64,000 bases of DNA from Pristiophorus japonicus (lineage: Eukaryota), in contig NC_091980.1 in the NCBI RefSeq assembly GCF_044704955.1, forward strand, positions 33,790,001 to 33,854,000, in the 5' to 3' direction. This document shows positions 9,263 to 12,200 of the stretch, in pieces. The notes below the pieces were generated by a model. The model did not search any database and was not told the DNA's origin. It saw only the letters and a program-made list of their open reading frames with translations. The position numbers and the translations under genes were made by a program. Position 1 is the first letter of the stretch. Every line of letters begins with the position of its first letter.

Positions 9263-12200
9263 GAAGCCTGAAGGCTCTGTGCCCCAATGCGAGGAGTATT
9301 CAGAATAAGGTGGACGAATTAACTGCACAGATAGCAGTTAATGGGTATGATGTAATTGGCATCACGGAGACATGGCTTCAGGTTGACCAAGGCTGGGAAT
9401 TCAACATCCAGGGGTATTCAACATTTAAGAAGGATAGACAGAAAGGAAAGGGAGGTGGGGTGGCATTGCTGGTTTAGAAAGGAAATGAATGCAATAGTAA
9501 GAAAGGACATTAGCTTGGATGATGTGGAATCGGTATGGGTGGAGTTGCGGAATACCAAAGGTCAGAAAACGCTAGTGGGAGTTGTGTACAGACCACCAAA
9601 CAGTAGTAGTGAGGTTGGGGACAGCATCAAACAAGAAATTAGGGATGCATGCAATAAAGGTACAGCAGTTATCATGGGTGGCTTTACATATTGATTGGGC
9701 TAACCAGCGGTGGAGGAGGATTTCCTGGAGTGTATTCGGGATGGTTTTCTAGACCAGTATGTCGAGGAACCAATTAGGGAGCTGGCCATCCTAGACTGGG
9801 TGATGTGTAATGAGAAAGGACTAATTAGCAATCTTGTTGTGCAAGGCTCCTTGGGGAAGAGTGACCATAATATGGTAGAATTCTTTATTCAGATGGAGAG
9901 TGTTTTGGCTAAGATCTGCATAACTAACCTGACCAGCCACCATGACCTCCGGGTGGTTCCTCCCTGGTCAGGAAGGTATATGCTTACATTTTTGTAAACA
10001 GGAGGTGGGTGGGATGGCTTGACCCATCCACCTCCACGGAGGTGTGTGGGGGACCTGACCCATCCACCTCCATGGCACGAACCTGGTATTGCAGTACTTC
10101 CAGGAACGGTGCAGTGGCTCTAGGCCTTTTGGCTAAGAGCATTGGCGCAGAGTGATCCTTGACTGGTGCAGGGTGACCTCTGGCGTTTGTGACTTGACAA
10201 AGAATTGGAAACGATTGGCTACGAATTTATAATTAAAAAAAAAAAAAAAAAAAAATTCAGATGGAGAGTGACCCAGTTAATTCAGAAACTAAGGCCCTGA
10301 ACTGAAGGAAAGGTAACTTCGATGGTTTGAGGCGTGAATTGGCTAGAATAGACTGGCAAATAATACTTAACGGATTGACGGTGGATAGGCAATGGCAAAC
10401 ATTTAAAGATCACATGGATGAACTTCAGCAATTGTACATCCCTGTCTGGAGTAAAAATAAAACGGGGAAGGTGGCTCAACCATGGCTAACAAAGGAAATT
10501 AAGGATAGTGTTAAATCCAAGGAAGAGGCATATAAATTGGCCAGAAAAAGCAACAAACCTGAGGACTGGGAGAAATTTAGAATTCAGCAGAGGAGGACAA
10601 AGGGTTTAATTAAGAGGGGGAAAAATAGATTACGAGAAGAAGCATGCCGGGAACATAAAAACTGACTGCAAAAGCTTCTATAGATCTGTGAAGAGATAAA
10701 GATTAGTGAAGACAAATGTAGGTCCCTTGCAGTTGAATTCAGGTGAATTTATAATGGGGAACAAAGAAATGGCAGAGCAATTGAACAAATACTTTGGTTC
10801 TATCTTGAGAAAGAAGACAAAAATAACCTTCCGGAAGTACTGGGCGACCAAAGGTTTAGTGAGAAGGAGGAACTGAAGGATATCCTTATTGTCAGGAAAT
10901 GGTGTTGGGGAAATTGATGGGATTGAAGGCCGATAAATCCCTGGGGCCTGATAGTCTGCATCCCAGAGTACTTAAGGAAGTGGCCCTAGAAATAGTGGAT
11001 GCATTGGTGATCATTTTCCAACAGTCTATCAACTCTGGATCAGTTCCTATGGATTGGAGGGTAGTTAATGTAACACCACTTTTTAAAAAGGGAGGGAGAG
11101 GGAAAGCGGGTAATTATAGACCGGTTAGCCTGACATCAGTAGTGAAGAAAATATTGGCATCAATTATTAAGGATGAAATAGCAGCGCATTTGGAAAGCAG
11201 TGACAGGATCGGTCCAAGTCAGCATGGATTTATGAAGGGGAAATCATGCTTGACAAATCTTCCTGAATTTTTTGAGGATTTAACTAGCAGAGTGGACAAG
11301 GGAGAACCAGTGGATATGGTGTATTTGGACTTTCAAAAGGCTTTTACAAGGTCCCACACAAGAGATTGGTGTGCAAAATCAAAGCACATGGTATTGGGGG
11401 TAATATACTGACGTGGATAGAGAACTGGTTGACAGACAGGAAGCAAAGAGTCGGGATAAACGGGTCCTTTTCAGAATGGCAGGCAGTGACTAGTGGGGTG
11501 CCGCAGGGCTCAGTGCTGGGACCCCAGCTCTTTACAATATACATCAATGATTTAGTTGAAGGAATTGAGTGTAATATCTCCAAGTTTGCAGATGACACTA
11601 AACTGGGTGGCGGTGTGAGCTGTGAGGAGGACGCTAAGAGGCTGCAGGATGACTTCGACAGGTTAGCTGAGTGGGCAAATGCATGGCAGATGCAATAAAA
11701 TGTGGATAAATGTGAGGTTATCCACTTTGGGGGCAAAAACGCAAAGGCAGGATATTATCTGAATGGCGGCAGATTAGGAAAAGGGGAGGTGCAACGAGAC
11801 CTGGGTGTCATGGTTCATCAGTCATTGAAAGTTGGCATGCAGGTACAGCAGGCGGTGAAGAAGGCAAATGGTCTGTTGGCTTTCATAGCTAGGGAATTTG
11901 AGTATCGGAGCAGGGAGATCTTGCTGCAGTTGTACAGGGCCTTGGTGAGGCCTCACCTGGAATATTGTGTTCAGTTTTGGTCTCCTAATCTGAGGAAGGA
12001 CGTTTTGCTATTGAGGGAGTGCAGTGAAGGTTCACCAGACTGATTCCTGGGATGGCTGGACTGACATATGAGGAGAGACTGGATCAACTGGGCCTTTATA
12101 CATTGGAGTTTAGAAGGATGAGAGGGGATCTCATAGAAACATAAGATTCTGACGGGACGGGGCAGGTTCGATGCGGGTAGAATGTTCCCGATGTTGGGGA

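Follow-up and report, generated by a model that had tools for sequence, protein, structure and literature searches.

A U2/U1 snRNA-derived retroposon family of Pristiophorus japonicus with copies inside U2 genes at the Keno target site

Introduction

A 64,000-nt stretch of the Pristiophorus japonicus genome (contig NC_091980.1, positions 33,790,001 to 33,854,000; hereafter the window) contains a short insert, assembled from pieces of spliceosomal snRNA, within a broken LINE reading frame. The locus raises the questions of what this insert is, where its RNA is made and which enzyme copies it. Elements with snRNA-derived heads, termed SINEU, are known from crocodilians; according to Kojima (2015, PMC4494074), none was found outside this group and their transcription was stated to be an open question.

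In our analysis, the window insert is a dispersed copy of a non-autonomous U2/U1 retroposon family, whose copies within U2 genes are probably transcribed from the host's upstream promoter and then probably reverse-transcribed by a resident Keno-type Tx1 LINE. A preliminary description of the window had recognized U2 modules in the insert, and overlooked both its U1 module and the fact that the family enters U2 genes, using the Keno site.

Results

Anatomy of the window insert

All features of the insert lie on the forward strand. It is flanked by a perfect 16-nt target-site duplication (TSD; 9887..9902 and 10255..10270) and ends in a poly(A) tract of 20 nt (10235..10254). The interrupted sequence is a LINE ORF2 (9265..12043), with an endonuclease piece upstream and a reverse transcriptase (RT) piece downstream of the insert. 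This LINE, presumably a CR1 element, is a bystander target.

The layout of the element was derived by aligning a sister copy (L021) to the genome's own U2 and U1 genes. It opens with U2 nt 1-28 and a diverged stretch of U1 nt 2-57, continues with U2 nt 99-186, in which stem-loop III is duplicated, and with a further U2 piece (nt 7-29), and closes with about 95 nt of tail and poly(A); its length is about 345 nt. From its nt 15 onward, a full-length reference copy matches the window copy at 99.7% identity, and the first head of the window copy comprises only U2 nt 15-28 (9903..9916). Complete copies reach back to U2 nt 1, so the window copy is clipped at its 5′ end; the stem-loop I segment from which the insert was originally said to start is indeed a U2 head, but is not the true start of the element.

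The following hairpin (9923..9972), originally described as new, is instead derived from U1 nt 2-57. Its score of 33 against the genome's U1 was reached by none of 300 shuffled sequences, whereas 176 of 300 reached its score against U2, and the U1-derived segment is clearer in older copies, where it is 80-86% identical to U1. As this hairpin replaces U2 nt 29-98, the LINE target site has been removed from the element. A U-run (9988..9994) occupies the place of the U2 Sm site, the A of which is lost in most older copies. Two stem-loop III-like hairpins then follow, the first with a 13-bp stem (10001..10035; located by predicted fold), the second a duplication missing from some older copies (10038..10071). 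U2 stem-loop IV (10081..10114) is a 94% match to nt 153-186 of the genome's U2 and is nearly invariant between subfamilies. A second U2 head, corresponding to U2 nt 7-29 and likely the older head of the family (10118..10140), precedes the family tail (10141..10234), which has no convincing match to the 3′ end of the U2-site LINE described below.

The predicted fold of the insert has a free energy of -139 kcal/mol (z -5.06) that none of 100 shuffled sequences equalled, and it contains hairpins at 10001-10035, 10038-10071 and 10117-10140. With the Rfam U2 model the insert scores 22.9 bits, below the 46-bit cut-off. Rechecking upheld the TSD, A tail, Sm-like site, tandem hairpins, stem-loop IV and disruption of ORF2 much as they had been described.

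A young and recently active family

Exact matches in the 5.92 Gb of genome searched number 5,613 for a family motif, 490 for a 30-mer from the young tail and 354 for a motif of type A, a form in which an internally deleted U2 is joined to head and tail. These counts are lower bounds, and reversed-pattern controls for the three motifs gave no match genome-wide. The many dispersed copies carry their own TSDs and A tails, which contradicts a one-off chimera. Of the 48 matches listed, 41 are 99-100% identical, a proportion biased by their best-first order. Nearest-neighbour divergence has a median of 0 in young groups and is at most about 1% in the others, computed on up to 40 copies per group. 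These data confirm a young, snRNA-headed, SINEU-like family that has recently been active.

A tree built on the 3′ part common to all groups (58 rows, at most 7 per group, bootstrap not settled) separates type A, the older types and a young clade (98/94). The window copy falls inside the young clade, of which copies located in U2 arrays form the most derived branch. The window copy belongs to subfamily yA, 1.6-2.8% from the array copies, which in turn lie a median of 0.3% from dispersed copies of subfamily yB. Insertion order points the same way. Of 161 distinct 3′ junctions, 33 run into another family copy on the same strand. Among 66 tandem pairs, young lies upstream of older in 25 and yB upstream of yA in four, with no case of either reverse order, and the subfamily of the array copies is the youngest by this measure. 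At one locus (L066) at least five family copies form a train, ordered from young to old with the same TSD between them; at another (L290) a U1 fragment lies directly 5′ of a full-length copy, possibly reflecting a fresh template switch.

A strict test detected TSDs of 6-23 nt in 71 of 142 arrays; by eye, the remainder include some TSDs overlooked by the parser and some apparent target deletions. The site motif purine-pyrimidine↓A-A/T (arrow, junction), as found at the U2 site, is present at 43 of 64 dispersed sites of the short element, against a background of 17%, and three dispersed LINE TSDs likewise start pyrimidine↓A. Recurrent targets are U2 nt 38/39, an RNase H-region site in an LTR retrotransposon and a site in a DDE transposase. 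The RNase H hotspot holds 61 tailed insertions genome-wide (L021, L183-L212); the 30 that were read comprise 28 copies of the short element, two short inserts and no LINE, although LINE insertions, having shorter tails, could in part go unnoticed there. This hotspot resembles the U2 site only loosely. By eye, the element tail appears to resemble the flank of this hotspot over 15 nt. The other recurrent site lies in a DDE_Tnp_4-type transposase gene (L155, L169, L180, L360, L369, L378), presumably Harbinger-like.

Family copies inside U2 genes

Eighteen of 96 full-length young heads, that is, copies beginning at U2 nt 1, sit in U2 arrays. In these copies the first nucleotide coincides with U2 +1, the U2 upstream region lies directly before it, and the poly(A) is fused to U2 nt 39. 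Among 78 promoter-led U2 units, 56 are intact, 17 carry the short element, four carry a LINE and one has a small duplication. In 15 of the 17 units with the short element, the 240 nt upstream are identical to those of intact units, and the lowest identity is 98.8%. A young copy is also present behind a second type of U2 upstream region on another chromosome. An older copy and a type A copy likewise occur at U2 nt 39, and another older copy resides inside the U2 head of a LINE, behind the array upstream region. One U2 gene carries the LINE and the short element stacked, and two of 30 dispersed type A copies hold insertions of the short element at the U2 site that they retain. Separate events of three ages have therefore used the nt 38/39 site. 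A model in which sources arise by insertion at the U2 start site itself was rejected, as it yielded no matches.

A tracts are longest in the arrays (median 51, versus 11.5 and 18). In array contigs the element occupies 6 of about 30 units and 4 of 30, compared with none of 62 units in further stretches of another contig; because stretches were chosen for bearing the element, this occupancy is not a genome average. Many of the 17 array insertions may trace back to a small number of events multiplied by recombination. The array copies could also be sinks rather than sources. One dispersed copy shares a variant otherwise confined to array copies, and the transfer could have run in either direction. 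For yA, none of 30 distinct full-length contexts (80 read, with identical array contexts collapsed) lies behind an snRNA upstream region. Since the assembly holds no promoter-linked yA copy, the yA source has presumably been lost or left unassembled.

An octamer is missing from the array-type upstream region, which by eye also lacks a clear counterpart of the proximal element found in the other three promoters; nor does the second type contain an octamer within 300 nt. Given these missing elements in the array upstream region, we assume its activity from the intact, homogeneous genes that it precedes. The U2 genes fall into two classes, one forming a tandem unit of about 750 bp with GTT repeats, the other dispersed on C9 and distinct in both its stem-loop IV and its upstream region (L031-L042 and L081-L082 cover both classes).

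An intact Tx1 LINE at the same U2 site

All 51 junctions of poly(A) with U2 nt 39 were classified: 22 belong to the short element and 29 to a single Tx1 LINE family. This survey reaches elements with a tail of eight A residues; Utopia copies without such a tail would escape it. Among the LINE junctions, 14 seem to be duplicates of a single old fragment. The LINEs in the arrays are 5.7 kb long, begin with a U2 head and are followed by a 3′ flank that starts at U2 nt 39. Of 12 long ORF2 frames in array LINEs, 11 are open over 1,147 codons and at least 99.6% alike; ORF2 encodes an APE-type endonuclease, an RT and a zinc finger. The protein is 39% identical over 97% to Takifugu BAD04856.1, presumably a Keno protein, and has short matches of 71-81% to Heterodontus francisci records. 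According to the main text of PMC4640811, Keno and Utopia share a 3′ flank from U2 nt 39, and the APE endonuclease is the mark of Keno. Intact, near-identical Keno-type LINEs, some of them in tandem, occupy U2 arrays on C19 (69.62-69.73 Mb), C1003 and C4309. They show two types of 5′ junction, and their 5′ UTR carries an octamer of its own beside an ATTGG word. At L249 (7283-7326), a U2 head is fused to the 5′ end of a dispersed LINE near U1 genes.

A Tx1 LINE at the same U2 site makes mobilization by a Tx1-type enzyme likely and CR1 an improbable motor, as had been suggested. No common 3′ end of the short element and the LINE was found in 30 LINE loci or in the intact copy, so we infer that the LINE enzyme recognizes poly(A). 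One weak, 20-nt likeness to the LINE 5′ UTR fails when tested against the whole element, where 18 of 100 shuffles equal it. Two other leads were discarded: short elements in 6 of 20 long LINE loci proved to be regional neighbours and not fusions, and a short orphan insert through which a partner LINE was sought is unique in the genome.

Promoter elements, Sm site and stem-loop IV

A Pol III B box is absent from young and type A copies, with one single-mismatch match in an older copy, and each copy type examined has three T4-T5 runs. The missing B box and the internal T runs argue against Pol III transcription. The tail carries repeated ATTGG words and one A-box-like 12-mer. In 54 non-tandem full-length contexts no 5′ extension was found, and the only shared upstream sequences are those of the LTR-element target and one repeat pair. 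None of four Rfam matches is a ribozyme; as the 5′ end of the element coincides with U2 +1, no ribozyme would be needed.

The 5′ ends are bimodal: of 89, 49 lie at nt 1-20, 29 at nt 107-123 (including three single-hairpin copies remapped into this class) and 11 elsewhere. Those of the clipped copies cluster just before, and in the 5′ arm of, the first 13-bp hairpin. In type A, which has a canonical Sm site, only 2 of 30 ends fall in the cluster, compared with 29 of 89 (p 0.004), and this weak cluster speaks against an Sm ring as the block to reverse transcription; fold-back at the predicted 13-bp hairpin would be the likelier cause. Recruitment of Sm proteins, once proposed for this RNA, is not supported: among 51 longer copies read, 36 have C in place of the A of the Sm site, and the canonical type shows no strong pile-up.

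Across 182 copies from different subfamilies, stem-loop IV has one variable column in 40, whereas 23 of 56 columns vary in the U1 part and, in the tail, 24 of 79, with 18 tail columns, like the head, being fixed by the filter. This near-invariance suggests selection on stem-loop IV. U2B″ binds the loop of U2 stem-loop IV, and the conservation fits, but does not by itself demonstrate, the binding of U2A′/U2B″ proposed earlier.

Discussion

A proposed cycle and its alternatives

Placement at U2 +1 behind an unchanged upstream region, the joint of poly(A) to U2 nt 39 and intact LINEs at the same site are all directly observed, and together they make U2 genes the likely sources and the LINE the likely motor. 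In the cycle that we propose, Pol II would start at U2 +1 and transcribe through the element and its long A tract, probably continuing into the remainder of U2. The LINE ORF2 protein would prime on the element's A tract. At a U2 gene, the U2 head of the element could then pair with the target's own 5′ end, and this pairing would swap out U2 nt 29-38 and create a new promoter-linked source. Loose specificity of the enzyme would scatter most copies elsewhere, with TSDs of 6-23 nt and without a promoter; dispersed copies such as that in the window would then be dead ends that landed off target. As the U2 arrays turn over, sources would be replaced, which would yield successive subfamilies.

It could be argued that U2 genes are only favoured landing sites and that the RNA comes from an internal promoter, a tandem neighbour or flank read-through. 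The 33 same-strand tandem junctions, the ATTGG repeats and A-box-like 12-mer of the tail and the lack of any promoter-linked yA copy would all be at home in such a scheme. Against it stand the missing B box, the internal T runs, the absence of 5′ extensions and of shared upstream sequence beyond the LTR target and one repeat pair in the 54 non-tandem contexts, and the concentration of the longest A tracts and the youngest type in the arrays, so that we judge it improbable. We give still less credence to U2-gene sources driven by another motor, either Utopia or a second Tx1/L1 element. Here one can point to the lack of a common tail, to the absence of LINEs from the 30 insertions read at the LTR-element hotspot and to the targeting of the same U2 site by Utopia, as outlined in PMC4640811, but all 29 nt-39 junctions with an eight-A tail that are not of the short element belong to one Tx1 family, which is intact and adjacent. 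The least credible alternative is a set of unrelated U2/U1 chimeras, each retrocopied on its own, or else a truncated 3′ portion of a LINE that targets U2: the build from snRNA pieces and the shared target would suit it, yet junctions are fixed and diagnostic changes common over hundreds of copies, and the tail differs from the LINE 3′ end, which disposes of the latter possibility as it had been raised at the outset. Host transcription from U2 genes and copying by the Keno-type LINE thus remains our preferred reading.

A broader proposition, on which we are evenly divided, is that SINEU-type elements are in general parasites of snRNA genes. They would be born, transcribed and renewed in U2 arrays at the Keno site, take new U2 heads from their hosts, shed the target site against re-hitting and keep stem-loop IV as a U2 RNP disguise; the cycle would be running now, and crocodilian SINEU would behave alike.

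Significance

Our reading offers a testable and likely answer to the question, posed by Kojima (2015), of what drives transcription of a retroposon that has an snRNA head but lacks an internal promoter. Because one genome contains the likely source loci, an intact candidate motor and offspring that have been dated, each step is open to test. Arrays of the essential U2 gene carry a two-tier parasite, and the young insertions, which number in the hundreds and are nearly identical, could serve as population markers.

Comparison with known systems

The general features of SINEU are all present: a U1/U2 head, a short poly(A)-tailed family, no Pol III promoter and a target in common with a Tx1 element. 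As portrayed in the SINEU sections of PMC4494074, crocodilian SINEU-1, -2 and -3 similarly gained U1/U2 heads repeatedly, are shorter than 500 nt, end in poly(A), contain internal oligo-T and form tandem copies sandwiching a TSD; there, too, the Tx1 partner was deduced from a common target, just as mobilization by a target-sharing Tx1 LINE is deduced here. Those elements target Mariner-N4 (Mariner-N4_AMi), whereas the recurrent targets found for the present family are U2 nt 38/39 and the RNase H and DDE transposase sites. The present family may have arisen independently of crocodilian SINEU. A classical Pol III SINE, unlike our element, has an internal A/B-box promoter.

Keno (Tx1) and Utopia, as treated in the main text of PMC4640811, target U2 with a 3′ flank from nt 39, as does the resident LINE, which has Keno's endonuclease type (an APE endonuclease plus RT). 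Both are autonomous, whereas the element described here is a short passenger without a common tail; neither 'non-autonomous' nor 'promoter' occurs in that main text. Among openly accessible papers, covered through listings and the openings of abstracts, there was no report of SINEU beyond crocodilians or of a SINE that depends on Keno.

The closest parallel in lifestyle may be drawn with the R2 SIDE and R2/R1 SIDE of 28S rDNA, which, as summarized in PMC3414825, are also short, non-autonomous, host-transcribed elements at a LINE site in a tandem RNA gene. R2-type SIDEs are internal deletions of a LINE and carry a ribozyme, whereas the present element is built from snRNA pieces instead of arising from a LINE by deletion, exploits a Pol II snRNA gene and has, in addition, spread through the genome in large numbers. 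The present family extends SINEU-type elements beyond crocodilians, to a cartilaginous fish, and differs from the reported SINEU in having copies in U2 genes behind the upstream region and an intact partner at the same site. What is new is the presence of family copies inside U2 genes at nt 39, the site of Keno and Utopia.
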